The notes under the pieces were generated by a model, which was not told the DNA's origin, searched no databases, and saw only the letters and a program-made list of their open reading frames with translations. The position numbers and the translations under genes were made by a program. From Clostridiales bacterium (lineage in GTDB: Bacteria; Bacillota; Clostridia; Christensenellales; UBA1242): a DNA stretch of 64,000 bases. Below, one piece after another: positions 3,745-45,599 of the stretch (positions within the stretch are counted from its first letter, which is position 1; every line of letters begins with the position of its first letter). The DNA is taken from NCBI GenBank assembly GCA_015069395.1, contig SVIR01000001.1:27268-91267 (forward strand). Direction: 5' to 3'.

Positions 3745-3757
3745 ATAATTATTCCTC

Positions 3758-8468: not shown

Positions 8469-10318
8469 TTTCTTTTAATTAGTATTGACAAAACTGAAAT
8501 ATCGGCAGGAGACACTCCTGAGATTCTTGATGCCTGCCCGAGATTTAACGGCTTTATCTCGTTTAATTTTTCAATAGCTTCTTGCCTTATTCCTTTTACA
8601 GACAAATAATCAAACCCTTCTGGAATCACTATTTCTTCGTTAGCCAACATTCTATCTACCTCTTCTTGCTGTTGTTTAAGATACCCTTCATATTTAATTT
8701 TGGTATTTACTACGTCCAACAAATCTTTAGGTTCATTTTTAAACATATCATATTTTTCTGAAATCTTGTAAATATCAATATTGTTTCTTCGCATCATATC
8801 TCTAAGTTTCAAGCTTTCTCTAGGTGCTGTTTCGCCATTGGTTACAAAAAAATCAACAAGTTCTGAATCCAGCTTGATTTTTTGTTCCAATTGCAACTCT
8901 ATCGCCTTAAGCCTTTCTTGCTTTTTTAAATATCTTTGATAACGAACGTCACTAACAAGACCAACTCTTCTTCCAATTTCGGTCAAACGTACGTCTGCAT
9001 TATCCTGCCTCAAAAGTAAACGATACTCTGCTCGACTAGTCATCATTCTGTAAGGCTCATTAGTTCCTTTTGTAACAATATCGTCAATCAAAACTCCAAT
9101 ATAGCCATCGCTTCTTTTCAAGACCAACTGCTCTTTATTTTGATTATAAAGACTTGCGTTAATACCTGCAACAATCCCTTGCGCAGCAGCTTCCTCATAA
9201 CCACTCGTACCATTGATTTGACCTGCAAAGAAAAGGCCTTTTATGTTTTTCAATTCTAGAGTTGGACTAAGCTGTGTTGGTTCGATACAATCATATTCAA
9301 TCGCATACGCATCTCTCATAATCTCAGCCTCTTGCAAGCCAATTACCGATCTTACCATATCATACTGAATATCAGCAGGCATTGATGTGCTAAAACCTTG
9401 CAAATACAGCTCCTGAGTATCCAAAGCTTCTGGCTCTAAAAACAATTGATGTCTTTCTTTATCTGCAAATCTTACAACTTTTGTTTCTATAGAAGGACAA
9501 TATCTTGGACCAACACCTTTTATCTCTCCAGAGATTGCAGGAGCTTTATCGAGATTGTTTTTTATAATCTCGTGCGTTTCTTTTGTTGTATAAGTCAAAT
9601 AGCATACAGACTTGTTTTTAACCTTCTCTTCTGTTAAATAAGAAAACGGTGCAATATCTTCGTCTCCTTCTTGAAGTTCCATAACAGAATAATCTACACT
9701 TCTTGCATGTAATCTCACTGGAGTTCCTGTTTTGAACCTCAACAGCTTTATGCCAAGATCTAACAAACTTTCAGAAAGTTTACTACTATTTTTAAAACCA
9801 TTTGGCCCAACAAATTCTCTACTTTCTCCTATTATGATCTCGCTCTTTAAATATACCCCTGTTGCAAACACAACACTTTTTGCTTTATATACCAAACCCA
9901 AATGCGTTGTTACTTTTTTATAATCACCCTCTAGCTCAATTGAAATTGCTTCGCCTTGTCTTACAAACAAATTCTGTTCATCTTCCAAAGACTTTTTCAT
10001 TTGTGAATGATATTCATTTTTATCAATTTGCGCCCTCAAACTTTGAACGGCTGGACCTTTGCCCTTGTTTAACATTCTTATTTGTATCGCCGTTTTGTCG
10101 GCAACAACCCCCATTTCGCCACCCAAAGCATCTACTTCAGCTACCAGCTGACCTTTTGCTGTTCCACCTATGGATGGATTGCAAGCCAAAAATCCAATCG
10201 CATCAAGACTGATAGTCAACAACAAAGTTTTGTTTCCCGTACGAGCCAAAGCTAAAGCTGCCTCACAGCCAGCGTGACCAGCTCCGATAACTATCGAATC
10301 AAAAAATTCTTCTTTCAT
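8465..10318 (-). CDS. mnmG: tRNA uridine 5-carboxymethylaminomethyl modification enzyme MnmG (GidA)
   Basis: FAD motif [12 protein letters not shown], 617 aa, typical MnmG motifs throughout ([28 protein letters not shown]). Confidence 0.95.
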
Positions 10319-10319
10319 T

Positions 10320-11651
10320 TTATTTCCCCAAGCAAAATTTTGAAAATATCAAATCAATAATATCTTCGTTTTCTGTATTTCCCGTAATTTTTCCTAACGT
10401 TTGCCACAAAGCCTTAATTAGCATTGACAACACATCTAAAGTTTCATCTTTTTTAGAAAGAACCTCTGCAATTATATCTTGAGCTTCTTTCAAAATCGCA
10501 AGTTGTCTTTCATTTGTCAAAACAACAGAATTAAAGTCGATTTCTTCTTTTAAGACCTTTTCTACAATACAATTCTTAAGCCTTTCAATGTTCTTGCTTT
10601 CTATTGCAGAAACCTCAATTTCGTTTTCAAAGCCTTTAAGTTTTCTAAGCTTGTCAATTTTGTTTACAACTACAATATGAGCCTTTTCTTTTATCAACTT
10701 ATAAATCTGCTTGTCCTCTTCCAAAAACTCTTGACTTCCATCTAATACAAATAAGACAATGTCGCAATGATTTAGAGCATGCTTACTTTTCTCAATCCCG
10801 ATACTTTCAACAACATCTTCGGTTTGTCTTATTCCTGCAGTATCAATAAGGTTTATTTTTATACCATTATGCAAAAAACTTTCAGTTACGCTGTCTCTAG
10901 TCGTCCCTTGAATGTCTGTAACAATCGCCCTATCTTCGCCAAGAAGGGCATTCATTAAGCTGCTTTTACCAACATTAGTTTTTCCAACAATAGCGACCTT
11001 TATCCCATTTTTAAGATAACTAGCACTTTCTGAGACTTTCAAAATTTTAGCGTTTTCTTCCTGAATCTCTTTCAACCTATCAAAAACATTGAACTTTAAA
11101 TTAAGTTCTTCAACCTCGTCTGGATAATCCATTCCAACTTCAATCTCTGCAAGTAGATATTTGAGTTTTTCTTGTTCTTGCAAAACCTTCTCAGCAAGTT
11201 TCCCATTTGTAATCTGTAAACTACTTTTAAGCTCTCCTTCAGTTTCAGCATTAATTTCTCCAATAATAGCTTCGGCTTTATCTAATGTAATTTTTCCATT
11301 TAAGAAAGCTCGCTTTGAAAACTCTCCAGCTTCGGCAAGCTTTGCTCCACAAGCCAAACATTTTTCCATAACTTTTTGAGCCAACAAAACCCCACCGTGC
11401 ACCTGAAACTCAACTATGTCTTCTCCAGTAAATGAGAAAGGGGCTTTAAAATAAACCATCAAACACTCTTCAAGGCCTTGCTCTAAAGATATTCTTCCAA
11501 AATACATATAACGAGGTTTAACAATCTCCTTATTTAAGTTTTTTGAGGTAAAAAACTTAAGTGCAATATCAAGCGCTTTTTTTCCAGTCATTCTTACTAT
11601 TGAAATAGCTCCTTTTCCAAGAGGCGTTGAAATTCCTACAATTGTTTCCAT
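10320..11651 (-). CDS. mnmE: tRNA modification GTPase MnmE
   Basis: G-domain motifs [14 protein letters not shown] and DTAGIR, C-terminal ...CLGK. I place the start at [10 protein letters not shown] (the canonical MnmE N-terminus) rather than at the 30-codon upstream extension in the track. Confidence 0.9.
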
Positions 11652-15481: not shown

Positions 15482-15569
15482 GGAGAGTTGGCTGAGCGGT
15501 CGAAAGCGGCGGTCTTGAAAACCGTTGAGGTGAAAGCCTCCTGGGGTTCGAATCCCTAACTCTCCGCCA
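15482..15569 (+). tRNA. tRNA-Ser (anticodon UGA)
   Basis: Hand fold: acceptor GGAGAGT/ACTCTCC, anticodon arm GCGGT-CTTGAAA-ACCGT, long variable arm GAGG-TGAAAG-CCTC, T arm TGGGG-TTCGAAT-CCCTA, then G and CCA. Confidence 0.9.
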
Positions 15570-17082
15570 AGTGATAACAATCCGAACACTTATGTTCGGG
15601 TTGTTCTTTTTTTGCCAAAAATTCAGTTTCTTGCTCAAAATCTGGTTGTTCGCTTAACTTTAATTGTGTGCCTTTATCATCACTTATATTAAAGTAAATA
15701 AAGCACTCATCATCAAATAGAACAACACGATTAACAAACATATCAATTAGTCTTTGTTTTGCATTGTTAAGTGAATAATCCAAATCCTTGAAAGAACATA
15801 AATAAGCATAAACAAGATTTTCATCAAGTGGTTTAATCGTTAGCATTTCTCTGCTAATGATTTTTTCTTTTAGTTCTTTATTTGCAATTTCAAGTTCTCT
15901 CATTCTATCGTTTGTAGTGTCGTTAAATATTCCATTTTCAAGGGCACGCAAAAGGTTCGCAAGCTTTTTGTTATTCTCTTGCAATTCTTTGTTTAAGTTT
16001 TCTAATATTAAATCTTTCTCAATAAACTTGTTATAACTATTTGAAGTTTCTTTTGCTATTGCTTTTAAATTTGCACTTTGCAAAAAGTTTTGAGTTGCTT
16101 GTAAAACAATATCTTCTATGTATTGTTGTGGAATAGATTTTTTATCACATTTGGCTTTGTTTTTCTTCTTTGTAAAACATTTATAGTAGTTATAGATTGT
16201 TCCAAGCTTGCCTTTGCCACTATCTCCAGTCATTAAACCACCACATTTGCCACAAATAAGCTTTCCACTAAGAAGATAGTTAACTTCGGTCTTATGATGA
16301 GCAGAAGTCCTTTTTGACACCTTTAATCGTGCATTTACTTCATCAAACACTTCTTCACTTACGATTGCTGGATAGATATTTGTATAAACTGTGTCATCTG
16401 CATAAACAACACCTTTGTAATTTTCATTTCTTAAAACTCTTGAAACAGAGTTAATACTCCAATCTTTGCCATAACCATTTTTAATGCCTTTGTCTTTAAG
16501 CATAACAACAATATCTTTAATCTTCTTGCCAGACAAATATTCATCAAACATAAGTCTAACAATATTGGCTTGTGTTTCGTTAATACTTAATTTAAGATTT
16601 TCAACATTATACCCATAAGGAGTTCTACCACCTGTGAATTGACCTTTAATTCTACTTTCTTTAAGCCCACGCTTAACCTTTTGAGATAGTTCAGCAGAAT
16701 AATATTCATTAACACCAATAATAACATTTTCAACCAATCTGCCTTCTGGTTTATCTGAAATATTTTCAGTTGCAGAAACCACCTTAACACCATTGTTATG
16801 TAAAGCCAAAGTGTTAATAGCACTATCATATCTATTTCTTGCAAATCTGTCTAATTTGTAAACCAACACAGCTTCAAAAGTTTTTTGCTTGCTGTCATAT
16901 AGCATTTGTTGAAAAGCAGGACGATTGTCATTTGTTCCTGTCTTTGCTCTATCAATATACTCGCTAACAATCACATATCCGTTTCTTTCAGCAAACTCTC
17001 TACAAACACGAACTTGACCTTCAATACTTTGCTCAGTCTGACTAGAACTTGAATATCTTGCATATATAACAGCTTTTATCAT
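15556..17082 (-). CDS. Large serine recombinase (resolvase/invertase catalytic domain + recombinase domain + zinc ribbon)
   Basis: N-terminus AVIYARYSSSSQTEQSIEGQ...LVYKLDRFARN (catalytic Ser region), CGKCGG...YYKC zinc ribbon, a coiled-coil region, 508 aa. Confidence 0.9.
   Translation of the reverse strand: MIKAVIYARYSSSSQTEQSIEGQVRVCREFAERNGYVIVSEYIDRAKTGTNDNRPAFQQMLYDSKQKTFEAVLVYKLDRFARNRYDSAINTLALHNNGVKVVSATENISDKPEGRLVENVIIGVNEYYSAELSQKVKRGLKESRIKGQFTGGRTPYGYNVENLKLSINETQANIVRLMFDEYLSGKKIKDIVVMLKDKGIKNGYGKDWSINSVSRVLRNENYKGVVYADDTVYTNIYPAIVSEEVFDEVNARLKVSKRTSAHHKTEVNYLLSGKLICGKCGGLMTGDSGKGKLGTIYNYYKCFTKKKNKAKCDKKSIPQQYIEDIVLQATQNFLQSANLKAIAKETSNSYNKFIEKDLILENLNKELQENNKKLANLLRALENGIFNDTTNDRMRELEIANKELKEKIISREMLTIKPLDENLVYAYLCSFKDLDYSLNNAKQRLIDMFVNRVVLFDDECFIYFNISDDKGTQLKLSEQPDFEQETEFLAKKEQPEHKCSDCYHLAES
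15564..15613 (+). repeat. attL-like 50-bp direct repeat (last 6 nt of tRNA-Ser plus its terminator hairpin and T-run)
   Basis: CCGCCAAGTGATAACAATCCGAACACTTATGTTCGGGTTGTTCTTTTTTT. The internal hairpin is AACAATCCGAAC / GTTCGGGTTGTT. Confidence 0.9.
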
Positions 17083-17101
17083 AATTTACTCTCCTAATTC
17101 T

Positions 17102-17275
17102 TTACATATTTATATCTTGTAATGAAGCACAAACAGCAACTACATTTGCCAACTCTTGCCAAGTTTTAGAATCGTCAACACACTTTTTCAAATACTCTTT
17201 TGCCATTTTGCTCCAATTTTGATTATTTTCTATTTTTTGTTTATAAGCCTCTTTTATAAATTTTTCTGGTGTCAT
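17102..17275 (-). CDS. Small hypothetical protein (57 aa) immediately upstream of the recombinase
   Basis: My translation is MTPEKFIKEAYKQKIENNQNWSKMAKEYLKKCVDDSKTWQELANVVAVCASLQDINM. It lies 19 nt upstream of the recombinase start on the same strand and is below the ORF-track size cut-off. Confidence 0.35.
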   Translation of the reverse strand: MTPEKFIKEAYKQKIENNQNWSKMAKEYLKKCVDDSKTWQELANVVAVCASLQDINM

Positions 17276-17391
17276 ACAATTTCTCCTTTTGGCTATTATA
17301 CCATGCTATTTTTCATTTGTCCGCTATTTTGTTCAAAAATATTGGTATATTTTTCATATTTTTGCTATAATGCCCGTAGGGGGATTATTTT

Positions 17392-18171
17392 ATGAGTAGT
17401 AATCGTCACGGTTTTTCAAATGAAGAACATATTGCAAATTATTTAAACAATAAAAAATTTTCTAATTTAAATGAAAATATGCAAGATTTCTTATCTTTTC
17501 TTTTTAAAAGGCAAATTTCAAGTAATGAAATCATATTTTCTGACTTAACACAGAAAATTGAAGGCAAGAATCCAAAGCCAGACATCTGGATTAAAATAGG
17601 TGGTGAAATAAAGCTTATTAGTGTTAAAGAAGGTTCTGGTAATAGCGTTCACCAAGAACCTTTTAAAGATTTTTGCAAATTTCTTGAAGATATAAATGTA
17701 TCAAAAGAAACAGTTAATCATCTAAAACTATATCATTATGGTGATGATACATTAGATGGTAAAGGTGAAACCAGGTTATCAACTTCTGATATCAAAACAA
17801 AATATCAAAGAAAAATTCTTTCAGTCAACACAGAGTTAAATTCTCCAGACACCTTAATTGAAATTCTTTATAGAGTTCTTTTTGCTGGTGTTTTTAGAAA
17901 TCCAATTATTGTTGATGCCATTTATCATGGTTCAGTTGATAGTGGTGTTTATGCCAATCGTGAAGAAATTATTGATTATTTAATAGATAATGCTAATGTT
18001 TCTGAAATGTCTGGCATTAGATTTTCTGAACTTACATATCAACCATGGACAAGAGACCAATTTAGAACTGCTTCACACCCAGAAAGAAGATATGTTATGC
18101 AAGTTAAATGGGGTTCAATGACCAATTGTATCAACATTATTACTAGGAGAAGAAATAACAATGGCAACTAA
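17392..18171 (+). CDS. Putative restriction endonuclease subunit 1
   Basis: 259 aa. Contains PKPDIWIKIGGEIKLISVKEGSG, a D...(E/S)xK arrangement compatible with a PD-(D/E)XK-type site. Overlaps the next ORF by 11 nt and is convergent with two m5C MTase genes. Confidence 0.5.
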   Translation: MSSNRHGFSNEEHIANYLNNKKFSNLNENMQDFLSFLFKRQISSNEIIFSDLTQKIEGKNPKPDIWIKIGGEIKLISVKEGSGNSVHQEPFKDFCKFLEDINVSKETVNHLKLYHYGDDTLDGKGETRLSTSDIKTKYQRKILSVNTELNSPDTLIEILYRVLFAGVFRNPIIVDAIYHGSVDSGVYANREEIIDYLIDNANVSEMSGIRFSELTYQPWTRDQFRTASHPERRYVMQVKWGSMTNCINIITRRRNNNGN

Positions 18172-18958
18172 TAGAGGAACTTTTGAGGGAGATATTCAAG
18201 AAATAGAGTTTGTTAAAGCATTTAATAAAGATAGACAAAATATAAATTTCTCTATTTTTACAGATGATATTAACTATGCTTTAGACAATGTTTATATGGT
18301 TAGAGTAACAACTAATCAATTATCAAGATTAAGTGGCAAAATTACAAAAACTCGTTCAGATTGTTATGCTATTTATTCTGAAGATGAAAAAATAATAAAC
18401 ATTTTACAAGAAAACGATTATTACCTTAATGAAAAAAACATTCAAAGTCTTAACTATACAATCATTAAAAAATCTGGAATCTCTATAAAAATGTCAGATT
18501 CTGATAAATATCAAATATTAAAAACAGGTCCAAACAGTTTTAATTCTTTGTTTGGTAATTATGAGCTAGGTGCTGGTGCAAGTTTGTTTTGCATGAGAGA
18601 TACCGAACTAATAAAAAACAAAGAACTTGTTATTGGTTGGAATACAACACTTGAAAATATGAAAAATTATTTTGATTGTGTAAACGACACAAATGATTTA
18701 ATTTCAAATAAAGAAATTTGTCAACAAATAAAAACTTTCTGTAATAATAAAATTACAGAAAGAATTAATAGTTCTTCAGAATTGCAACAAAAAATATTCA
18801 ATGGTTATCCAATTTATGATGAACCTTATTCTGCGTGGTATTTATTCTCTCATGGAAAATTAGAGAAATTAACTTATATACCATTTACGGTAACAACAGG
18901 TTCTGGCAGAAGTCATGGAGATTATACAATTGTATTAAAACCAAAAAAGGAAGATTAA
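18161..18958 (+). CDS. Putative restriction endonuclease subunit 2
   Basis: 265 aa. Contains KTRSDCYAIY...SGISIKMSD (a D...SxK arrangement similar to subunit 1) and is translationally coupled to subunit 1. Confidence 0.45.
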   Translation: MATNRGTFEGDIQEIEFVKAFNKDRQNINFSIFTDDINYALDNVYMVRVTTNQLSRLSGKITKTRSDCYAIYSEDEKIINILQENDYYLNEKNIQSLNYTIIKKSGISIKMSDSDKYQILKTGPNSFNSLFGNYELGAGASLFCMRDTELIKNKELVIGWNTTLENMKNYFDCVNDTNDLISNKEICQQIKTFCNNKITERINSSSELQQKIFNGYPIYDEPYSAWYLFSHGKLEKLTYIPFTVTTGSGRSHGDYTIVLKPKKED

Positions 18959-18976
18959 AACTAATCTTCCTTTTTT
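18943..18976. terminator. Bidirectional hairpin spanning both convergent stop codons
   Basis: AAAAAAGGAAGATTA-aaac-TAATCTTCCTTTTTT forms a perfect 15-bp stem flanked by A and T runs. Confidence 0.7.
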
Positions 18977-19956
18977 AATATTCTAACAATTTCATTAGCA
19001 AGTAATGTTATTATTGGAACAACAACACTATTACCAATTTGCTTATAAGTTTGAGCACCTTTATTTATTTTATATGTTTCTGGATAACCCATAATTCTTA
19101 AGCATTCTCTTTCTGTTAATCTTCTTTGTTGCTCAATAACAATAGGAACATTATTTCCACCCGTTCCCATTTTTGCAGTTAAACAAGGAGAAATTCCATC
19201 ATTTTTAAATTGACATCTTGAAGCTCTAACTTCATAAGCCAAAGTATCATTTTTCACATTGATGGATTTTTCTTTTACATATTTTTTAATATTATTATCA
19301 CAAGTGTCAGAAATATAATAATTATCTTCGGCAAAACTATCTATTAAATTTTCAAGTTTATTTGTAAACTCTTGTGGTTCTGGAAAACAAAAATTATCAA
19401 TACTTATATTTAAATCCTTTCTAAAACCAATACAATACCACCTTTCTCTATGTTGTGGAACATTGTAATCTTTTGCATTTAATACTTTGTATTTAAAATC
19501 ATAACCCAAGTCAGACAATGTGTTTAATATTGTTTGTAAGGTATTTCCATTGTCGTGATTTGTTATTCCCTTAACATTTTCAAGTATAAATGCTTTTGGT
19601 TGTTTTTCTTTTATTATTCTTGCAACATCAAAGAATAACGTGCCACGGGTATCATTAAATCCAAGTCGCTTTCCTGCTATTGAGAAAGATTGGCAAGGAA
19701 AACCAGCACAAATTATATCGTGATTTGGAATATCTTTTTCATCTATTTTTGTTATATCGCCAAAAGGCACTTCATTAAAATTTGCAGCATAAGTTTTTTG
19801 TGCAAAAAGGTCTATATCTGAACTAAACACACAATCGCAATTGTTTCGTTCAAAAGCTATACGAAAGCCACCCATTCCACAGAATAGGTCTATAAACTTA
19901 AACTTATTGTCACTGCACAAACTCGCTGTATCCCATAAGGTTAATTGTTTATACAT
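18961..19956 (-). CDS. DNA (cytosine-5)-methyltransferase
   Basis: Motif I FCGMGG, motif IV FPCQSFS, motif VI ENVKG, motif VIII QHRER, motif X GNSV. Confidence 0.92.
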   Translation of the reverse strand: MYKQLTLWDTASLCSDNKFKFIDLFCGMGGFRIAFERNNCDCVFSSDIDLFAQKTYAANFNEVPFGDITKIDEKDIPNHDIICAGFPCQSFSIAGKRLGFNDTRGTLFFDVARIIKEKQPKAFILENVKGITNHDNGNTLQTILNTLSDLGYDFKYKVLNAKDYNVPQHRERWYCIGFRKDLNISIDNFCFPEPQEFTNKLENLIDSFAEDNYYISDTCDNNIKKYVKEKSINVKNDTLAYEVRASRCQFKNDGISPCLTAKMGTGGNNVPIVIEQQRRLTERECLRIMGYPETYKINKGAQTYKQIGNSVVVPIITLLANEIVRILKKED

Positions 19957-21001
19957 TTTTCTTATCTTTTAATCCTTTATAAATTTCTTCTGCAATTGCT
20001 TTTCCAAGTAATGGTGGAACTGCATTTGCCAATTGTTGGTGTTGGTCTGAACCATTTCCTGTTAAAACAAAATTATCGTCAAATGACTGTAATCTAGCAC
20101 ATTCTCTAACGGTTAATATTCTATTTTCAGTTGGGTGAATTATCATTGCTTTTGCAGCATGCTTAATTGTAACAGATGGTTTTTTAGGGTCAAGCCTTTT
20201 ATATGCGTTACTATAAGTTCCACCACCAGTTCCAAGCTCTTTTGGTATATCTTGCCAATTTCCACCTTGTGGAATAAATGACATTCTTTTTGTAACTAAT
20301 TCATTTGATTGCCTTCTCACATGGTTGCAAATATCTTTTCTTCCAGCCATTTGTTTTTGAAATTCACAATCTGGTTCTAAATATTCATCTCCGTTAGGGT
20401 CAACATTTCCAATTGCTTGACCAACAGTTATATAATTTTCTTCAGTATATTTTGGCTCTGGATATTCCACATTAAAATCCGGTTTAGTGATTATAAAAAT
20501 AACTCTTTTTCTTTGTTGAGGAACACCATAATCAGCAGCATTTAAAACCTTATATTTAACATTATAACCCAAATTATTAAATTCTTCTATAATTAGTTCT
20601 TTAACATCTTTTCCGTCTTGTGTTGTCATAGATAGTAGTCCAACAACATTTTCAATAACAACAATTTTAGGATTGGTAATTTTTGTAACACGAACAACTT
20701 CTTCAAATAACGAATTTCTTTTATCGTCTTTCTTCCGTTGTCCTATCATGCTAAATCCCTGACAAGGTGGACCAGCAATTATTACATCAACTTTATCTTT
20801 ATATTTATCCCAATAATCATCTGGCAATTTTGTCAAATCTTCATTAAGTAATTCTGTTCCCGAATGATTTTCTTTAAATGTGTTAAGGGCAATATCCCAA
20901 ATATCTGCTCCGAGTACAACTTCAAAATTTTCAGTCATACTAAACCCGTAAGAAAAACCACCGATACCACAAAATAAATCTATGACTTTAAATTTATCCA
21001 T
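19949..21001 (-). CDS. DNA (cytosine-5)-methyltransferase
   Basis: Motif I FCGIGG, motif IV PPCQGFS, motif VI ENVVGL, motif VIII QQRKR, C-terminal NAVPP. Overlaps the second MTase by 8 nt. Confidence 0.92.
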   Translation of the reverse strand: MDKFKVIDLFCGIGGFSYGFSMTENFEVVLGADIWDIALNTFKENHSGTELLNEDLTKLPDDYWDKYKDKVDVIIAGPPCQGFSMIGQRKKDDKRNSLFEEVVRVTKITNPKIVVIENVVGLLSMTTQDGKDVKELIIEEFNNLGYNVKYKVLNAADYGVPQQRKRVIFIITKPDFNVEYPEPKYTEENYITVGQAIGNVDPNGDEYLEPDCEFQKQMAGRKDICNHVRRQSNELVTKRMSFIPQGGNWQDIPKELGTGGGTYSNAYKRLDPKKPSVTIKHAAKAMIIHPTENRILTVRECARLQSFDDNFVLTGNGSDQHQQLANAVPPLLGKAIAEEIYKGLKDKKNV

Positions 21002-21187
21002 TTCTACTCCTTTTCTAAAACTAAGAATATTATAACATAAACAAATTGAAAAATCCGCTAATTTTTAATATTTTCTTAAATTATTTTAGTAAGCAGGATA
21101 AGAGTTGCATACATTTTGCCATATTTTTTGGTCTAAAAGCCCTAAAAATCAGCACTTTTGATGTATTCACTTTTCAAAAGTCGCTGA

Positions 21188-21201
21188 ATGCAAATTTGCA
21201 T
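21188..21201. promoter_or_regulatory. Perfect 14-bp palindrome in the MTase-upstream region (possible operator)
   Basis: ATGCAAATTTGCAT is self-complementary and lies about 190 nt upstream of the MTase operon start. Confidence 0.25.
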
Positions 21202-21215
21202 GCACTCCCTTTCTA

Positions 21216-21246
21216 GACCAAGTGGGAAACCCACTTGTCTTTTTTT
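21216..21246 (+). terminator. Rho-independent terminator with no annotated gene upstream
   Basis: GACCAAGTGGG-aaa-CCCACTTGTC followed by T7. Confidence 0.55.
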
Positions 21247-21360
21247 GTAGAAATTATGGTTTTTGAAGATGTTTTATGCTATACTATTGTTGCTCCAAAT
21301 AGAGCATTGGGTTAAAGTCAATAAGGCACAAGCATATTCTCATAATTGTAAAAATATGAG

Positions 21361-21600
21361 ATGCAAAAACTTATTGACACACAATGTTTTATTGATTGTG
21401 AAGATATACCAGAAAATACAGCCACATTCAACCTTAATACTAAAGTATTAAGGCAAGGCAAAACAAAATTAAGTCAAAAGCAAATAAAGCGAATTGCCTT
21501 TATTCTTGCCACCGACTTAAAGAACTTCGCCGAATCCAATGGCAACTTTTCCAATCTATCAGCAAATGAAGTTTACACCCATTTGCAATCCAATCAATAA
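21361..21600 (+). CDS. Hypothetical protein (79 aa)
   Basis: The ORF ends 8 nt before a strong terminator. The RBS is weak and I recognise no domain. Confidence 0.4.
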   Translation: MQKLIDTQCFIDCEDIPENTATFNLNTKVLRQGKTKLSQKQIKRIAFILATDLKNFAESNGNFSNLSANEVYTHLQSNQ

Positions 21601-21607
21601 AACCCAC

Positions 21608-21639
21608 GAGAAGAAGTAAAAAACTTCTTCTCTTTTTTT
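21608..21639 (+). terminator. Rho-independent terminator
   Basis: GAGAAGAAGT-aaaaa-ACTTCTTCTC followed by T7. Confidence 0.75.
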
Positions 21640-21696
21640 ATTTTAGGCCTTTAAATTTAAATCAAAATATGGTATTATTAAATTGTGAGGTATTTT

Positions 21697-23541
21697 ATGG
21701 ATAAAAGATATACAGATTCTGAATATTTATTTAAAAACTTTTTATTGTCAAAACTTAATCTTAAGGCAACTTATCTTGATATTCCTGATAATAACTGTTT
21801 CTATTTATGCATTAGCGAGGTCATTAAAAACTTGTCGCTTAATATAGAAAAAAATATAAATGATTACAGTAATGCTTTAATTAAAAATTTTTATAATTAT
21901 TTAATAAAAGACACATTATTTAAAGAAAAACAACCAGCCGTTTATGGTGCTCTTTTAGCTAAATTAAAAGATTATTTAGATTCTAGCAAAATAAGCAAAA
22001 AAGAACTGTTTGGATTTTTGCTTGATGTTCGCAAAAGAAATAGCTTAAGTTATTTTAAAATGGTTTTTTCGGAAGTTGAATTTATACTCAAGAAAGAAAC
22101 TGTTGATAATGTAGAATATTCTATTAATGTATTTAATACCCTATTGAATGAAGTAATAGCAAGGGGCACAGATATTAGATTCTTAAATTTTTCGTTATCA
22201 GAAATAGATACAAATCCAGTTTTTGAAGAATTTATAAACTATGTAAAATATATTGCTAAGGTTAAACCATATAATAAAGATGTTTTAGATATTTTAGTGC
22301 CAATTAAAATAGATAAAGAAAAAGATATTTTTGTAGAAATTTGTGACAAAAGAAATCAAAAATATGAAATTGTGGATGACACTCTATATTGTAAAATATA
22401 TGATTGTGATACAAATGACTTCTTTACTTTAATTGAAGACCAAATGGTAAGGATAAGTTCAATATTCGACTTGATAAAACTTTACACATATCATACTCCA
22501 GAATTTGATAGTGAATTACCTATTAAAATAAAAAGTAAAACATTAAATAAAGAATTTGAAATTCCTTTTAACTACATTATAAGATATACAGGGAACAAAC
22601 CGTATGCCAAACATCTAGACAATACTATAACATCATTAGATATTGCAAAAGAAACCGATACTAAGTTTTATCATCAAGTTTTAAATACTTTAAGTTATGC
22701 AGAAAAAGATTTAAGTAGAAAAAACAGTAATGCATTTGTCGATAATTGGATTGCTTTAGAAACAATTTGCTCAATTTCTGAAATTAAATCTGGATATGAA
22801 GCTGTTCAGTTTTATGTGCCTAAAATGTTAATCACAACAATAGTTAGGCAAAACATTACATCATATTTGATAAAAGCATATAAAAATTATTTTAAAGATG
22901 TAAAACTTGAAGAGTTTTTAAAAATCATAACTAATGAAAATTATGAAGAGTTCCTAAATAAGGTACCAAATGTTTATAATAGATTTATTCTTTCAAATTG
23001 GGCAAAAATTTTAAACAACCCTCTTAACTTATATCAATACATTAACAGATTGCAAGATAGAATTAATATTGATATTTTAAGAATTTATATTTTAAGAAAC
23101 GAATATGTGCATGCTTGTAATTTAAATGCATTTCAAACATTGGAATTCTATAAATTAAAAAACATATTTAATATCGTCATTGATGAATTTTTTAGATGCT
23201 TAACTAATAGAAAAAATAAAGACGAGAGCCACGAGGGAATAGGTTTTGATATTTTCAATCAATTTACATATAAGTGGGACATTATGCTAAAATCTCTTAA
23301 TTTAATGTTTAAAACTGAAGAACATACTTATAAATCGGATACAACAAAAACAGTACCAGATAAAACTAATATAACAATAAAATTAGAAGGAGATTTGACT
23401 TATTCAGATTATTTATTAAATTTATTAAAAAACAATAATGAGATTTTAAAAAAATACATTCCTAAAAAGGAGTATAAACAAAAAGATGAGGATTTGGAAA
23501 TTATAGAAAATGACTTTATAAATATTTTTACGGATTTTTAA
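21697..23541 (+). CDS. Uncharacterised 614-aa protein with C-terminal HEPN-like domain (candidate abortive-infection/defence RNase)
   Basis: Start at the ATG after GTGAGG. RNEYVH (23095-23112) fits the HEPN Rx4-6H motif. It lies 112 aa after an NWIALE helix (22741-22767), the usual N-terminal HEPN landmark. The N-terminal ~340 aa are unrecognised. Confidence 0.55.
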   Translation: MDKRYTDSEYLFKNFLLSKLNLKATYLDIPDNNCFYLCISEVIKNLSLNIEKNINDYSNALIKNFYNYLIKDTLFKEKQPAVYGALLAKLKDYLDSSKISKKELFGFLLDVRKRNSLSYFKMVFSEVEFILKKETVDNVEYSINVFNTLLNEVIARGTDIRFLNFSLSEIDTNPVFEEFINYVKYIAKVKPYNKDVLDILVPIKIDKEKDIFVEICDKRNQKYEIVDDTLYCKIYDCDTNDFFTLIEDQMVRISSIFDLIKLYTYHTPEFDSELPIKIKSKTLNKEFEIPFNYIIRYTGNKPYAKHLDNTITSLDIAKETDTKFYHQVLNTLSYAEKDLSRKNSNAFVDNWIALETICSISEIKSGYEAVQFYVPKMLITTIVRQNITSYLIKAYKNYFKDVKLEEFLKIITNENYEEFLNKVPNVYNRFILSNWAKILNNPLNLYQYINRLQDRINIDILRIYILRNEYVHACNLNAFQTLEFYKLKNIFNIVIDEFFRCLTNRKNKDESHEGIGFDIFNQFTYKWDIMLKSLNLMFKTEEHTYKSDTTKTVPDKTNITIKLEGDLTYSDYLLNLLKNNNEILKKYIPKKEYKQKDEDLEIIENDFINIFTDF

Positions 23542-23613
23542 TAATTTTAAAATATATCCTAACCCATCTAACACCAATATAGATTTTAGTGTTAGGATTG
23601 GATAACGGTCTTC

Positions 23614-23663
23614 CCGCCAAGTGATAACAATCCGAACGCTTATGTTCGGGTTGTTCTTTTTTT
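23614..23663 (+). repeat. attR-like 50-bp direct repeat
   Basis: CCGCCAAGTGATAACAATCCGAACGCTTATGTTCGGGTTGTTCTTTTTTT. There is a single A/G difference (23638 versus 15588) from the attL-like copy. Confidence 0.9.
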
Positions 23664-23677
23664 ATATCTAATATTTC

Positions 23678-23706
23678 TTGAAAAAAGATTCTACATATGT
23701 TACAAT
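23678..23706 (+). promoter_or_regulatory. Sigma-A type promoter
   Basis: TTGAAA, 17 nt, TACAAT, upstream of the 23797 gene. Confidence 0.45.
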
Positions 23707-23796
23707 TTCGAGAAAGGTAAAGGTTTTGTTTTTTTGACACACGAACAAAAAACTTATTTTTATAGTTAAAAAATTAAATCACTGGAGGAGTAAACT

Positions 23797-27018: not shown

Positions 27019-28341
27019 TTACATATCTTTTCTTCTATAATCAACCTCAATTACATCTTTTTCTTTCTTTTTCTTTGCTTCTGCTTCTATCCATTTCTTT
27101 ACAATCCAAGTTGTAAGAGGAGTTAAAGCAATCATAATTATTTGTCCAATAATCAAATAGATCGCAAACAAACTTGTGTACATAAATGTAAATATACCCA
27201 TAATTATAGGCATTACAAAATACATAATCATATTCTGTTTTTGAGCTGGTTGATTTTTGTTTTTCATTAATTTGTTAGAAAGCCAAATAGACAAGAATGA
27301 TGTCAAAACAGCCAAAATTGTCAAAATATAATAACCATTGTGTTGTTTTCTTATAGAATCAAGTTGACCATTGTTTTCTATAATATTATTGAAGATTTTT
27401 CCTTCATAATCATTTGCTTCTTCCAATGTCTTCTCTTCGTCTGAATAATATTTAGATAAATATTCTTTAATTTCTTTTTCTGTAAACATTGGATTTGAAG
27501 GAGATTCTGATCTATAGATATTTTTAATCCATAAAAATCCTTCTCTTGTATCTTCAAAATAATCTCTTACTGTTTGTTCTGCCAAAGTTTTAAATATTTC
27601 ATTGTATCCAGTGTCTGTTGTAAAAGCATTTGATATGACTTCTCCTTCAGAAACTTCAGGCAATTCAATTACATATTGACTAAGCAAATTATAGATATTT
27701 TCATTTGTCAATTCTGTATTATAGTCAAATTCAAATGGAATTTCTCCACCATTTTCTCTTGTCAAAGTAACAACAAGCTTTGTCAAATCTTCGTTTAGTT
27801 CTGCTTCTAAAGAATATTCTTCGCCAGCAGTCTTTGCTTCTGATATTTGCAACTTTAATGCATCTGCTCCAGCTATTGAAGAGTCATTAAGTTGGATTAC
27901 ATTTGCATACAAAGATTTCATATTTTCATATTGATAACAAATATTGTAGTTTGAAACTGCTTGCAATGAATTCCACAATGTCAAGAAAACCGTAAATTGT
28001 AAGATCATTGTGATAATCATTGGAAGACAACTTCCCATCATTGAAAATTGATACTTCTTATAAACCTCTTGTTGTTTTTGCTGAAGCAATCTTTGATCGT
28101 GACCATACTTTTTTTGAATTGCTTCAAGTTCTGGTTTCATCTTTGTATTTATATCCATATTCTTCATATTGACTTTTTTATTCAAAATGTCAACAAGAGA
28201 AAACAAAACTCTTACTATCACAGCAATCAAAATTACTGCTAAAATGTAAGTTCCCATCGCACCCTTAAATGAATTCAAAATAGTTGGCCAAAAGCCCGAT
28301 GGTTGTTTCAAAGCAACAAGTGCTGTGCTTACAAAATCCAT
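27019..28341 (-). CDS. yidC: Membrane protein insertase YidC/Oxa1 family, with a large internal insertion
   Basis: Conserved position after rnpA-yidD. Multiple TMs, a GFLWIKNI motif and a basic C-tail. At 440 aa it is far longer than typical Firmicute YidC. Confidence 0.8.
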   Translation of the reverse strand: MDFVSTALVALKQPSGFWPTILNSFKGAMGTYILAVILIAVIVRVLFSLVDILNKKVNMKNMDINTKMKPELEAIQKKYGHDQRLLQQKQQEVYKKYQFSMMGSCLPMIITMILQFTVFLTLWNSLQAVSNYNICYQYENMKSLYANVIQLNDSSIAGADALKLQISEAKTAGEEYSLEAELNEDLTKLVVTLTRENGGEIPFEFDYNTELTNENIYNLLSQYVIELPEVSEGEVISNAFTTDTGYNEIFKTLAEQTVRDYFEDTREGFLWIKNIYRSESPSNPMFTEKEIKEYLSKYYSDEEKTLEEANDYEGKIFNNIIENNGQLDSIRKQHNGYYILTILAVLTSFLSIWLSNKLMKNKNQPAQKQNMIMYFVMPIIMGIFTFMYTSLFAIYLIIGQIIMIALTPLTTWIVKKWIEAEAKKKKEKDVIEVDYRRKDM

Positions 28342-28592
28342 AAATCTTCTCCTTTAATATTTATAGGAACAGGGTCAACCCCTCTTTTCTTTTGCCAAGG
28401 AACACATCTAAAAATCCTCTTTACGCCAAGCCACGACCCTTTAAAGATTCCAAATCTTTCAACCGACTTTATGAAATAGTTTGAACAGGACGGAAAAAAG
28501 ATACAACTATGTGGAAGTAAAGGTGATATTCCATACTTATATAGATACACTGGTGACAAAAAGATTTTTTTAATTATTTTTTTTGCTTTCAT
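28329..28592 (-). CDS. yidD: Membrane protein insertion efficiency factor YidD
   Basis: YKYGISPLLPHSCIFFPSCSNY...G...G..R..RC.PW matches the YidD signature. Confidence 0.88.
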   Translation of the reverse strand: MKAKKIIKKIFLSPVYLYKYGISPLLPHSCIFFPSCSNYFIKSVERFGIFKGSWLGVKRIFRCVPWQKKRGVDPVPINIKGEDLWIL

Positions 28593-28902
28593 ATTTCTTA
28601 AACAATTTGATAAGTTCTTCTTTCAATTGAATAAAAGTCAAACAAACAGAATTTTCTTTTGCTAAAATCACAAAATTACAAAAAGAAGGAATGTCGATTT
28701 CTCTACGAGCAATCTCTTTAATCCTTCTTTTTAGCAGGTTTCTTTTGTTTGCTTTTCCCAACTTTTTGCTAATTGAAATGCCAAGCTTATAGTCTTTGTA
28801 TTTGCTTTTTACTACAAAAAGACAAAAGTTTTCGGTATGAACTCTTTCTCCATTTTTGTAAATAAAATTAAATTGACTATTTTTTTTAAGTCTATGTTCC
28901 AT
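28570..28902 (-). CDS. rnpA: Ribonuclease P protein component
   Basis: 110 aa and basic (KK..KANKRNLLKRRIKE), directly downstream of rpmH. Confidence 0.9.
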   Translation of the reverse strand: MEHRLKKNSQFNFIYKNGERVHTENFCLFVVKSKYKDYKLGISISKKLGKANKRNLLKRRIKEIARREIDIPSFCNFVILAKENSVCLTFIQLKEELIKLFKKYESKKNN

Positions 28903-28914
28903 TTCTCAAAAACC

Positions 28915-29049
28915 TTAAGCAGCGATATTCTTTCTGCCTCTGTTTCTTCTTCTTTTCAACACATTTCTTCCACCTTGTGTCTTCATTCTTTGACGGAATC
29001 CATGTACTTTTTGTCTTTGTCTTTTCTTAGGTTGATAAGTTCTTTTCAT
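28915..29049 (-). CDS. rpmH: 50S ribosomal protein L34
   Basis: Below the ORF-track cut-off. My translation is [44 protein letters not shown] (44 aa). Confidence 0.95.
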
Positions 29050-29123
29050 TTTTTTCTCCTTAATTTTTAGCATTAACTCCTATTGCAAAAGGTATTTTCT
29101 TTCGAATAGATTTTACGAACTCT

Positions 29124-29152
29124 ATTATATCTGAAAAAAAACGATTTGTCAA
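29124..29152 (-). promoter_or_regulatory. Consensus sigma-A promoter of the rpmH operon
   Basis: On the minus strand: TTGACA, 17 nt, TATAAT. Confidence 0.6.
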
Positions 29153-29284
29153 CTGCAAATGACACCATTTTTTTTAAAAATTATTTCGTAAAATGTCGCA
29201 AAAGAAAGTGTTGTTTTCTATATATTTTAATTTTCGATTTTATCGCAACAAAAAAACACTCAATTTATGAGTGTTTTTTGAATT

Positions 29285-30385
29285 TTAACCGATCATTCTT
29301 ACAGGTAAAATCAAATATAAGAATTCGTCTCCTTCAACTGGAACAATTACACAAGGATTTGCAGGAGAATTGAAACAAATCTTAACAAATTCGTCGCCAT
29401 TTGCTTTTAAGTTTTCGATAAAGTATCTAGCATTGAAAGCAATCAAAAGTTCTTTTCCCGTCATATTGATGTTTACATTTTCTTTTACATTTCCAAGTTC
29501 TGAATTTGATGTAATGCAAAGATTTTTTTCTTTTACTTCAAATTTAACACAATTTCCTTGTCCCACTTTAGAAAGAAGAGAAGCTCTTTCAAGGGCATCT
29601 TCAAATTGACCTTTGTTTATAACGCAAATTGTTTCATAGTTTGCTGAAATGATTTGTTTATAATTTACAAAATCTCCTTCCAACAATCTTGTAGTAACTT
29701 TTGTATCTCCAAAATCCACCATAAGAGTGCTTCTATCAACATAAACATTTATAATTTCTTCACTGTCATCAAGAAGTCTAGATATCTCTGACAAACTCTT
29801 TGCTGGAATAACTATATTCATAGTCAAGTTTGAAACAATTGTTTTCTTAACTTTCGCTAAACGATATCCGTCAAGAGCAACAGCATTGATTGTGTTTTTG
29901 TCTATATCAAACAAAACACCTTTCAAAATTGGTCTAGAATCGTCAATAGCAACTGAGAAGATTGTCTTGTTGATAATTGTTTTCAAATCTTTTTTTGAAA
30001 TCCCAAAATAATCCAAACTTTCAAGTTTCTTAAATGAAGGATATTCCAAAACATTATAACATTGAATCAAACTTTGGCTATCGTCATATTTGATAAGCAT
30101 TTGATTTTTTTCATTAAGTTCGAGTTCAATCATTTCATTTGTAAGTTTTTTAATAAATTCGGTAATAAACTTTCCTGGAACAACAGCTTCGCCTTCGGTT
30201 TTGATGTTTGCTTTGATTTTCTTTTCAATTGAAAGTTCTGTATCTGTAGCACTCAAAGTCAAAGTATCGTCTTCGGCTACGATTTTAATACCCTCCAAGA
30301 TAGGGTTTGTGACTTTGTTTGATATAGCTTTGCTAACACTCATTAGTGCATCTGAAAGCTCAATCCCATGACAACTAACTAACAT
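29285..30385 (-). CDS. dnaN: DNA polymerase III beta sliding clamp
   Basis: 366 aa with three-domain clamp-like sequence (...NPILEGIKI..., ...LPVRM at the C-terminus), downstream of dnaA. Confidence 0.95.
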   Translation of the reverse strand: MLVSCHGIELSDALMSVSKAISNKVTNPILEGIKIVAEDDTLTLSATDTELSIEKKIKANIKTEGEAVVPGKFITEFIKKLTNEMIELELNEKNQMLIKYDDSQSLIQCYNVLEYPSFKKLESLDYFGISKKDLKTIINKTIFSVAIDDSRPILKGVLFDIDKNTINAVALDGYRLAKVKKTIVSNLTMNIVIPAKSLSEISRLLDDSEEIINVYVDRSTLMVDFGDTKVTTRLLEGDFVNYKQIISANYETICVINKGQFEDALERASLLSKVGQGNCVKFEVKEKNLCITSNSELGNVKENVNINMTGKELLIAFNARYFIENLKANGDEFVKICFNSPANPCVIVPVEGDEFLYLILPVRMIG

Positions 30386-30938
30386 TTCTCTGCTCCTTTT
30401 TTATGTAATCATTATAACACAAAACCTTTGCGCGTGCAAGTATAATTTATATTTTTAAATATTTTTTTAATAATATTACCCATAATAAGGTTTTGTAGAA
30501 ATGTGGATAAATTAGGACTGTTTCTAGAAAATGTCAATATATAGTAGTTCCGTGAGAGGCTTGTATACAAGATAACCAAAATATTTATGTGGAAAAATGT
30601 GGACAAGTTTGTAGATAAATATAATTTTTTTATCCACAAATTATTTTTTTGTTGTGGACAAATAAAAAAATTGTCGAAAAAAAACAAAAAAATCTTTTTA
30701 AAGAATTTTTTATTATTTATAAATATATTTATGGATATTATTATATACGCCTAAAAACGGACGGTGTATAAATATTAAATGATTTTTTATTGTACTATTT
30801 AGAAAAAATATAAAAAATTAAAAAAAATAATAAAAAAAGTTAAAAAAAACATGTTTTTTACGATTTTTTATGTTTTTTTATACTTTTTTTTAACAATTTT
30901 TTAAAAAACATTATTTAAAAAAATAAAAAAGGAGTTTT
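30386..30938. other. oriC: Candidate oriC (DnaA-box cluster plus AT-rich unwinding region) in the dnaA-dnaN spacer
   Basis: There are two perfect DnaA boxes: TGTGGATAA at 30502-30510 and TTATCCACA at 30630-30638. There are three one-mismatch boxes at 30588-30596, 30598-30606 and 30654-30662. A roughly 240-bp, almost pure A/T stretch follows at 30700-30938. Confidence 0.75.
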
Positions 30939-32288
30939 TTAAACTCCTTCCAACATATTTCTAATTTCATTTACAAGTGTCTGAGTCTTTTTATTGACTT
31001 TCAAATCTTGAGTAATCTTGTCTCGTGAATGCATTATTGTTGTATGGTCACGTCCTCCAAATATCTTTCCAATGTTTACAAGAGGAAGATTTAAAAGTTC
31101 GCTGATCAAATAGATTGATATCATTCTAGGTTCTACAATGTCTTTGGTTTTCTTTTTTCCAATCAAGTCTTGATATGATACATTGAAATAATCACAAACA
31201 ATCGTAATAATTTTGTCTGGAGTAAGATCGTTTTTGATCTCTTCTTTTTGATTTGAGAAGATGTCTTTAACTTCTTCCATTGTTGCTACTTTTTTGCCTG
31301 AAAGAGTTGCCAAGAAATAAACTTCTGAAAGTTTTCCCTCAAGTTCTCTAATATTTGTGTCAATGTGCTCTGCAATATAATTTAAAACTTCGTCTTCAGC
31401 ATAATATTTTTCAAGTTGGCTTTTTTTGTGTAAAATTGCGATTCTTGTTTCAATGTCAGGTTGTTGAATGTCGTGAATAAGACCACTTGCAAATCTAGAA
31501 CGAAGCCTGTCTTCAAGGGTAGGTATATCCTTTGGTGGTCTATCAGAACAAATAATAACTTGTTTGTTGCTTAAAATTAATTCGTTGAATGTATGGAAAA
31601 ACTCTTCTTGAGTTTCTTTTTTGTTTGAAATAAACTGGATGTCGTCAACCATCAAAACATCCAAATTTCTATATTTGCCTCTAAATTCCATAACAGCCTT
31701 ATTTTTTGTTGGGGAATAAAGAGAAGAAATATAGTCATTTGTGAACTGCTCACAAGTAGTATATAAAATTTTTAAATCTGGAGAAAATTCTCTCAAATAA
31801 TTTCCAATAGAATGCAAAAGGTGTGTTTTTCCAAGGCCAACACCACCATAAATAAAAAGAGGATTGTATCTTTTTCCTGGGTGTTCAGCAACCGTTCTAG
31901 CCGCAGCATAAACAAATTGATTGCTTTTTCCAACTACAAAATTGTCGAAAGTATATTTTTCCATAAATGGATTTTTTTCTTCTTTCTTGTGTAAATTTTT
32001 ATCGTCAACCCTGTTGTTTTTTAGATACTCAATTTCTTCATTTTGATCAAGAACAACGATTTTTAATGGTTTTCCAACAATTTCAAAAGTACAATCGCCA
32101 ATTTTGTCAATAAAGTTTCTCAATATTTGATTTTTAGCAGAAACGGATTGAGCAGCGATTATAAAATTGTCTTTGTCGTCAATTTCAATAGGTTTTATTG
32201 TCTTAATCCACAACATAAATGAAACTGACGAAACTCGAAGCTCCAATTTTTCTAGAATTTGTTGCCATATTACATTTATATCTTGCAT
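30939..32288 (-). CDS. dnaA: Chromosomal replication initiator protein DnaA
   Basis: AAA+ motifs GGVGLGKTHLL and LMVDDIQF, sensor region, C-terminal DnaA-box-binding signature (GGRDHTTIMHS). Confidence 0.97.
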   Translation of the reverse strand: MQDINVIWQQILEKLELRVSSVSFMLWIKTIKPIEIDDKDNFIIAAQSVSAKNQILRNFIDKIGDCTFEIVGKPLKIVVLDQNEEIEYLKNNRVDDKNLHKKEEKNPFMEKYTFDNFVVGKSNQFVYAAARTVAEHPGKRYNPLFIYGGVGLGKTHLLHSIGNYLREFSPDLKILYTTCEQFTNDYISSLYSPTKNKAVMEFRGKYRNLDVLMVDDIQFISNKKETQEEFFHTFNELILSNKQVIICSDRPPKDIPTLEDRLRSRFASGLIHDIQQPDIETRIAILHKKSQLEKYYAEDEVLNYIAEHIDTNIRELEGKLSEVYFLATLSGKKVATMEEVKDIFSNQKEEIKNDLTPDKIITIVCDYFNVSYQDLIGKKKTKDIVEPRMISIYLISELLNLPLVNIGKIFGGRDHTTIMHSRDKITQDLKVNKKTQTLVNEIRNMLEGV

Positions 32289-32413
32289 CTTTCACCTCTC
32301 AATCGTATAAAAAACTTTGTCAGAGCAAAGTTTGTCTAAAAAAATTATAAATTACAGAAAATAAATTGTCAAGCAACTTTGAAATATTAAAATTTTGTGA
32401 TAAAATATATTCA

Positions 32414-45532: not shown

Positions 45533-45599
45533 TAAATTGTCGAAAAATGCAAACAATATTTTTAAAATATTGGACAAAAATTTATCGTTTGGAGTTCGT

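Follow-up and report, generated by a model that had tools for sequence, protein, structure and literature searches.

The DNA considered here (the window) is a stretch of 64,000 nucleotides from a Clostridiales bacterium (contig SVIR01000001.1, positions 27,268 to 91,267), in which a tRNA-Ser(UGA) gene is directly followed by a gene for a large serine recombinase (LSR), by a set of predicted defence genes and by a second copy of the 50 nucleotides found at the tRNA 3' end. An initial annotation of the window had read this arrangement as an integrative island at the tRNA-Ser 3' end with the LSR as its only recombinase, and our Pfam and PHROG searches support that reading. The segment 15570-23613 (~8 kb) is, with good probability, an integrative defence island of an LSR-mobilised family that targets the 3' ends of tRNA-Ser genes, and the island is probably mobile.

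Island ends, recombinase and cargo

The integration target, tRNA-Ser(UGA), occupies 15482-15569 on the forward strand (ARAGORN; Rfam tRNA, 56.9 bits). Its last 6 nt, CCGCCA (15564-15569), are repeated at 23614-23619 and constitute the common core of the two island ends. Both direct copies of the 50-mer CCGCCAAGTGATAACAATCCGAAC[A/G]CTTATGTTCGGGTTGTTCTTTTTTT begin with this core; they lie in the same orientation at 15564-15613 (+, A) and 23614-23663 (+, G) and are 49/50 identical, differing by the A/G at position 25 only, while the number of such matches expected from 100 dinucleotide shuffles was 0.00. The initial annotation had described these repeats, and the start of the first one inside the tRNA, correctly (ARAGORN, Rfam). 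Copy 1 (attL, 15564-15613, +) consists of the core and of the A variant of an element-borne terminator hairpin, and its opposite strand codes for the last ~19 residues of the LSR. At the far end, a right-end arm (P arm, “L2”; 23543-23613, +), with GTTAGGATTGGATAACGGTCTTC adjoining the core, leads into copy 2 (attR, 23614-23663, +), formed by the core and a resident solo hairpin of the G variant, directly after which come a promoter-like chromosomal site and then a conserved pyrophosphatase gene. An intact tRNA-Ser(UGA) is therefore found at one island end and a displaced CCGCCA at the other, the arrangement by which tRNA-targeting islands are recognised. To the right of 23663, the window contains no further site with arm and core. 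The island is also deviant in composition, a point that the initial annotation had proposed to check: its GC content is 28.3% (32.9% in the rest of the window), and the tetranucleotide deviation within the window reaches its maximum there.

The LSR gene (15556-17082, −; 508 aa) has the three domains of its class, namely Resolvase (PF00239, E = 4.3e-31, aa 4-148), Recombinase (PF07508, E = 2.8e-19) and Zn_ribbon_recom (PF13408, E = 3.3e-15), and its translation retains an intact catalytic motif, Y7-A-R9-Y-S11 (Y-x-R-x-S). It matches the PHROG 95 integrase with E = 2.7e-117 over aa 1-462. The closest LSRs of phage databases are only ~40% identical to it. Recombinase domains were found in this gene only, among the eight open reading frames (ORFs) of the island that were scanned with Pfam (all the non-overlapping coding ones). 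An Islander-type tyrosine-integrase island was considered and set aside, with no Phage_integrase domain among these eight ORFs; in a complete sister island (L028, see below) there is likewise no precomputed Phage_integrase match among the called genes. The LSR frame has no stop codon of its own, but runs through the hairpin and the core and terminates in the antisense strand of the tRNA. At least 53 of its 109 full-length best homologues end in antisense tRNA T-arm peptides (GFEP, GLEP, GIRTP), which makes a tRNA-adjoining LSR whose ORF enters the tRNA a property of the clade. The C-terminus is predicted to read ...HLAES at the UGA gene, with the stop supplied by flanking DNA (15556-15613; 23528-23740, −), and would be 14-28 residues longer at GCU or CGA tRNAs and ~28 longer in the excised form; since the PHROG integrase profile ends at aa 462, this tail may be without function.

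Between the recombinase and the right-end arm lies the cargo, which the initial annotation had labelled as defence genes. A 57-aa ORF directly upstream of the LSR (17102-17275, −; identical in L003) is followed by a type II restriction endonuclease encoded in two coupled ORFs (17392-18171 and 18161-18958, +), which match the N-terminal and C-terminal halves of the PADLOC model REase_II PDLC03402. A frameshift pseudogene was judged unlikely, given the 11-nt overlap of the two ORFs and the AGGAGA ribosome-binding site ahead of the second ATG. Two C-5 cytosine DNA methyltransferases (18961-19956 and 19949-21001, −; PADLOC MTase_II) match PF00145 with E-values of 2e-103 and 2e-74, so that methyltransferase and endonuclease stand together in one module, as in type II restriction-modification (R-M) systems, whose activity is here predicted from sequence. 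The last gene (21685-23541, +) encodes 618 aa from a GTG (614 aa from the first ATG) and, searched as a single sequence, has no match in Pfam, PADLOC, NCBIfam or PHROG. A profile of its family, in contrast, matches PDB 9hxi, Ec2ApeA, with E = 8.4e-10 over ~490 residues and with its RNxxxH aligned to the HEPN motif, which supports both the “HEPN-like” and the “defence island” labels. R471-N472-x3-H476 is invariant in this family (21 sequences) and agrees with the HEPN pattern Rx4-6H; the family is rare (39 cluster representatives in 1.84 billion proteins). Judged from these matches, the product is a divergent ApeA/HEPN homologue with a predicted anti-phage function, resembling ApeA (a single-gene anti-phage defence) in length as well as in the aligned region, although very divergent from it. 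The defence cargo is hence supported in both its parts, R-M (Pfam, PADLOC) and ApeA-like protein (family profile).

In front of this gene stands a module (21022-21643, +) formed by a terminator, a promoter-like site and a 79-aa ORF (21361-21600), which is conserved throughout the island family at 77-96% nucleotide identity (L005, L009, L010, L011, L012 and L027) and is also carried by L019 and L028. In sister islands the ORF is likewise preceded by the conserved terminator and promoter-like site, and it is kept also where the LSR is deleted. The ORF has 366 protein homologues, and among the matches listed (n=120) identity is 87-100% and nearly all are 79 aa long. No match was found in Pfam, PHROG, NCBIfam or PDB sequences, nor a Foldseek match with E < 1 for its AlphaFold model (predicted local distance difference test, pLDDT, 71); the protein could be an accessory factor or a recombination directionality factor (RDF).

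The island family in gut and rumen Clostridia

A total of 185,579 species-representative genomes were scanned with a pattern of the hairpin core. The scan returned 10 loci, all in metagenome-assembled genomes of gut or rumen Clostridia (Ca. Onthoplasma and relatives), seven of which adjoin a tRNA-Ser gene or its 3' end, the other three being orphan copies; the same pattern gave one locus in a metagenome collection and none in viral contigs. Several isoacceptor genes are involved, with the hairpin standing directly 3' of tRNA-Ser(UGA) in L004 and L014, of tRNA-Ser(CGA) in L008 and L011, and of tRNA-Ser(GCU) in L007 and L010. Hairpin and LSR occur together at tRNA-Ser(UGA) in the window, in L014 (LSR 96% identical) and in L018 (74%; the syntenic tRNA of a related species), at tRNA-Ser(CGA) in L008 (96%) and P0002 (94%, with the tRNA deduced from the LSR tail), and at tRNA-Ser(GCU) in L034 (97%) and L027 (84%). 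Even at 46% LSR identity, in the human gut contig L029, the LSR lies at a tRNA-Ser gene, in this case GGA, with a different hairpin but with the same CCGCCAAGTGA junction. In every related contig with a tRNA-Ser-adjoining LSR, the LSR frame enters the tRNA via the hairpin.

The conserved modules of these islands are the hairpin with the LSR, the block of the 79-aa ORF and a right end of ~70 nt, while the cargo between them is variable and, where identifiable, consists of R-M or other defence genes. L028 holds a complete island of 7.6 kb with an intact LSR (80% identical). Elements also accumulate in tandem: in L019, tRNA-Ser(UGA) is followed by an element with a 44% LSR, by its arm, by CCGCCA and by the hairpin of a second element with a 79% LSR, and arrays of this kind explain the orphan copies of the hairpin. 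In L007, arm, core and hairpin are followed by a 10-nt LSR remnant.

Internal deletions of the LSR recur in L010, L011 and L012 (also in L004, L007 and L009), where the gene keeps its first 23-39 and last 18-100 codons, or else only the hairpin and up to ~20 nt; the hairpin end is retained in all of them. As for the content and neighbourhood of individual islands, the cargo of L029 (1059-11689) includes DndB, a Dnd-associated protein, Fic, an SMC-like ATPase and an SNF2/PLD helicase. The left neighbour of the L028 island (9112-10404) is a ~22-nt fragment resembling a tRNA-Ser(GCU) 3' end, beyond which lie ArdC and MPTase-PolyVal genes, so that another type of mobile element uses the same hotspot. 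In L006 (1642-5096), the hairpin and a remnant of the LSR 3' end, together with a degenerate copy of a tRNA-Ser, stand beside homologues of the window's 57.9-60.9 kb region, near a tRNA-Arg gene, which points to a rearrangement of such sites in another species.

Strand exchange and the origin of the 50-bp repeat

The comparison of sister islands narrows the place at which strands are exchanged. The sequence formed by GTTAGGATTGGATAACGGTCTTC and CCGCCA is found with 0-1 mismatch in 29 nt in L005, L007, L009 and L012, and with 22/23 matches in L028. In L005, L009, L012 and L028, what comes after CCGCCA (or CCGCCAA, CCGCCAAG) is four unrelated sequences, with no hairpin, and the two ends of sister islands with this right arm share CCGCCA(A/AG) only. 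The direct repeat of the family is consequently 6-8 bp long, and the 50-bp identity, which the initial annotation had treated as a property of the recombination system, is not one. On the left side of the core, the tRNA bodies vary among themselves and are also different from the arm, and in an alignment of 18 sites CCGCCA is the sole invariant block; since the flanks diverge on both sides of it, the exchange must fall within these six positions, with a non-palindromic CC or CA as the probable dinucleotide. In the tRNA, they correspond to the final two nucleotides of the acceptor stem, to G73 and to CCA. Only these 6 nt of the repeat are duplicated tRNA, the other 44 nt being element-type sequence.

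The dyad that had been noted in the repeat is real: it has 12-bp arms around a 6-nt loop, folds as RNA with -19.4 kcal/mol (z = -4.9) and is followed by a U-run. Its proposed role as the recombinase crossover site did not hold, as it lies right of the exchange and has the form of an intrinsic terminator. In L018 its 3' arm co-varies with the 5' arm so that pairing is kept. Placed right of the exchange point, the hairpin belongs to the P' arm of the element, and it presumably acts as a terminator that the element gives to a tRNA gene cut off from its own. Loop variants follow the same logic. Where the hairpin adjoins an LSR, its loop starts with A or C at 15/16 loci with an E1-type hairpin (the exception is L034); it starts with G in L034, L002 and L020 and in both solo copies of the window. 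The LSR-side hairpin of the window carries A, as expected for an exchange left of the loop.

From these observations we propose the following course of integration. The attP site would comprise the right-end arm GTTAGGATTGGATAACGGTCTTC, CCGCCA and AGTGATAACAATCCGAAC with the remaining terminator hairpin, followed by the 3' end of the LSR gene; any tRNA-Ser would provide attB, in the form of its T-arm and acceptor 3' strand with CCGCCA as the last six bases. Strand exchange within CCGCCA, probably at a CC dinucleotide and presumably catalysed by the LSR (judging by its domains and position), would restore the tRNA exactly and provide it with the element's terminator, and the original downstream DNA would be displaced to attR, behind the right arm of the element. 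In the window, attR holds the right arm, the core and a full hairpin, followed by chromosomal genes, from which it follows that the target already had a hairpin, and a 50-bp repeat is seen here because the DNA downstream of the target tRNA already had an identical core and hairpin. The incoming A-type element would thus have exchanged, left of the loop, with a site bearing a G-type hairpin. Regarding the source of this resident hairpin, we favour, with some reserve, an earlier element of the G variant, of which it would be the P' end left behind as a relic.

A third, exact copy of the 50-mer, overlooked in the initial annotation, lies inverted at 2517-2566 (−, G variant), 2.26 kb downstream of tRNA-Ser(GCU) and beyond two lipoprotein-like genes. 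It is preceded by another P-type arm (“L3”, 2567-2590), over 52 nt it shows 100% identity with the copy next to the LSR in L034, and it may be a further relic, behind a different element arm. The second tRNA of target type, tRNA-Ser(GCU) (4824-4914, −; ARAGORN, Rfam), has the same CCGCCA end, and over positions 1-30000 Rfam matched only these two tRNAs. Between it and the third copy lies an LSR-less cassette (“E2”, 2567-4829, −), composed of a core (4824-4829), a terminator (4746-4823), the two lipoprotein-like genes and arm L3, whose GTTAGATTAGAATCGCTATTGCC shows 13/23 matches to the island's arm. The ends of this cassette recur ~0.6 kb apart in L013 and, in L005, flank an inserted island, at the attR of which the cassette terminator is also found.

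The junction at the right end differs between strains. One metagenome contig, L002, agrees with the window at 100% identity on either side and joins window positions 3002 down to 2567, via the 50-mer, to 23664 onward; another, L020 (99.3% identical over 2.8 kb), has a novel arm, L4, joined to the same hairpin and right flank. Three strains accordingly show three left arms at one junction (L2 in the window, L3 in L002 and L4 in L020), and this comparison suggests that the site has been used recently. The L002 junction could be an inversion of 2567-23613, or alternatively the trace of a mobile LSR-less cassette, both ends of which recur in L013. A simple inversion as the sole explanation is disfavoured by L020 and by the direction of replication: from an oriC placed at ~30-32 kb by the minimum of the cumulative GC skew (dnaA, 30939-32288), it would set par, gid, trmE and jag head-on. 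Exchange between the inverted copies at 2517 and 23614 is hinted at by one short contig, L002, only, and a DNA invertase or shufflon-type inversion system was discarded as a candidate, the recombinase being of the large type.

Several observations weigh against the proposed course of events. Symmetry around CCGCCA is weak (9-10/24), and the arm motifs GTTAGGATTG and CAATCCGAAC have one base, and not a dinucleotide, at their centre. Both solo hairpins, at 23614 and 2517, directly abut chromosomal DNA with no LSR remnant, so that a relic origin requires two very clean deletions. The contigs L002 and L020 are short and cross the 50-bp repeat, and may be misassembled. Neither the empty site (tRNA-Ser(UGA) joined to 23620 onward) nor a circular junction was found: exact-protein look-ups with both flanking genes and the LSR gave contigs that were colinear or too short to reach the site, and a more distant pyrophosphatase homologue showed no synteny. 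No RDF was identified. Finally, part of the family is immobile, the LSR being internally deleted in many sister islands (L010, L011 and L012).

Other accounts of the repeat start from the same data. One of them, which we consider possible but rather unlikely, leaves the core crossover unchanged and takes the hairpin at 23620-23663 to be the native terminator of tRNA-Ser(UGA), captured into attP by an ancestor of the element, so that the 50-bp repeat would be attP-attB homology by descent, as in tyrosine-integrase islands. It agrees with the promoter-like site and conserved chromosomal gene directly after the hairpin, with the same hairpin and right flank in three strains and with the fact that deletion scars are not seen. 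It does not account for the fact that LSR genes throughout the family, even at 46% identity, have a hairpin at their 3' end, with a sequence particular to each lineage, for the 100% identity, over 50-52 nt, between the solo copies and the copy next to the LSR in L034 (another species), for a 50-mer that is 98% identical in L004 where the tRNA is only 86% identical, or for an identical hairpin at two different loci of the window. Distinctly less probable is that the whole 50-mer is a serine-recombinase site, with the dimer seated on the 12-bp dyad, exchange at the TT of the loop and the long identity intrinsic to the system. The TT-centred dyad is by far the strongest of the region (16/24), TT is non-palindromic and the 5' arm of the hairpin is conserved across the family. 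Nevertheless, the four sister islands with right arm and CCGCCA, but without a hairpin at attR, would be impossible if exchange took place in the loop, the way in which loop variants are distributed agrees with an exchange left of it, stem, loop and U-run form a standard intrinsic terminator, and the co-variation of the 3' arm in L018 points to a constraint at the level of RNA and not of protein binding.

An origin of the repeats and junctions in homologous recombination between the 50-bp repeats (including an inversion of 2567-23613), the island being a fixed and immobile remnant on which the LSR does not act, seems if anything slightly less credible. The inverted third copy would allow it, the junction of arm L3 with the right flank of copy 2 in L002 is precisely what such an inversion would produce, and LSR decay is common in relatives; on the other hand, the LSR of the window is intact, the left arm of L020 is absent from the window and so beyond the reach of an inversion, the inverted genes would face replication as described above, and 94-97% identical LSRs are found at three different tRNA-Ser genes. 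There is, lastly, very little to recommend the view of the 50-mer as a dispersed terminator or repetitive extragenic palindromic (REP)-like repeat without functional tie to the recombinase, which the initial annotation had named as the finding that would speak against an island. Three copies within 24 kb, one of them inverted, might suggest it, but the genome scan gave only ten loci, nine of which hold remnants of the island family (mostly LSR). All copies start with CCGCCA (CAGCCA in L013) after a tRNA-Ser 3' end or an element arm, and downstream of nearly all of them lies an LSR or its remnants.

A broader and more tentative proposal, which we regard as improbable though worth stating, is that in gut Clostridia the tRNA-Ser genes are linked into a network of recombination sites on which a large, hitherto undescribed LSR clade acts. 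If so, any arm followed by CCGCCA could be a substrate, whether it belongs to one of the four tRNA-Ser isoacceptors or to the end of a resident element, and autonomous islands, LSR-deleted islands and LSR-less cassettes (such as the lipoprotein cassette at 2567-4829) would be inserted, stacked, exchanged among tRNA-Ser loci and occasionally inverted in trans. The stop codon of the LSR would then come from the flank of the core (~534 aa when excised, 508-536 aa when integrated), and integration could change the C-terminus of the enzyme and bias directionality.

Relation to known systems and further features of the window

In textbooks and in island-finding programs, an island at a tRNA gene is taken as synonymous with a tyrosine integrase, and Islander is limited to such islands, its authors having stated that only tyrosine integrases are known to target tDNAs (PMC4383910). 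The initial annotation had called the pairing of an LSR with a tRNA gene unusual, and the literature agrees that it is rare but not unprecedented. TIGER assigned 14/297 serine-integrase elements to t(m)RNA genes and called for experimental proof (PMC7192596), actinomycete integrative and conjugative elements (AICEs) with serine recombinases lie at tRNA-Leu in Mycobacterium (PMC3218068), and a minority of tycheposons carry LSRs (bioRxiv 10.1101/2020.12.28.424599). The AICE and TIGER cases are based on sequence analysis only (PMC3218068, PMC7192596). The filamentous phage phiRSM integrates at tRNA-Ser as well, with a small recombinase of the resolvase/invertase type, unlike the LSR of the island (PMC4471427). 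In none of these four sets of reports did we find an element that uses several isoacceptors, an integrase ORF that continues into the tRNA or a terminator supplied by the element; more generally, we did not find described an attP inside the 3' end of an LSR ORF, the use of all tRNA-Ser isoacceptors via a 6-bp core, or such a terminator. The LSR catalogue of Durrant et al. 2022 discards LSRs with att centres > 20 bp, and would therefore miss the locus of the window (PMC10083194).

In mechanism, this is an ordinary serine integrase, and it is the target that is unusual. The island shares with LSR elements and prophages (phiC31, Bxb1, A118, TP901-1) the three-domain LSR, the integrase gene at the edge, the short common core and the cargo between attL and attR. 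It differs from them in its target, which is a tRNA 3' end and not a protein-coding gene, in its use of several isoacceptor genes via a shared 6-bp core and in an attP that overlaps the 3' end of the LSR ORF. It resembles tyrosine-integrase islands in that one of its ends has an intact tRNA and the other a displaced duplicate of the tRNA 3' end, and in that the integrase lies beside the tRNA; its family likewise accumulates in tandem on the tRNA-proximal side and carries accessory or defence genes. However, there is no tyrosine recombinase, only 6 nt of tRNA are duplicated, and the long repeat is a terminator that is not needed for strand exchange. Cassette chromosome elements, such as the staphylococcal cassette chromosome mec (SCCmec), use the Ccr LSRs and insert at the 3' end of rlmH. 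They resemble the island family as LSR-driven cassettes at the 3' end of a conserved housekeeping gene, in their tandem or composite arrays and in their LSR-less cassettes mobilised in trans, but the island has a single LSR and a tRNA instead of rlmH as its target, and the homology is distant (scores of 118-121 against NCBIfam CcrA/CcrB, with cut-offs of 700-900).

The 50-bp repeat that drew attention to the locus has, in this analysis, an ordinary explanation. What the gut and rumen Clostridia offer is a coherent, tRNA-Ser-specific LSR family with a reconstructable attP and a 6-bp core, which makes the use of tRNA genes by serine integrases directly testable. For the engineering of anaerobes that are hard to manipulate, its members are candidate integrases whose natural landing site is conserved and present in multiple copies, and the family carries R-M, ApeA-like and Dnd-associated defence genes between species.

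Elsewhere in the window, the origin region (27019-33493) contains yidC, dnaN and dnaA (−) and recF (+), with the island lying ~7-15 kb to the left of dnaA, and a single ORF of 3869 aa extends over 45504-57113 (+).

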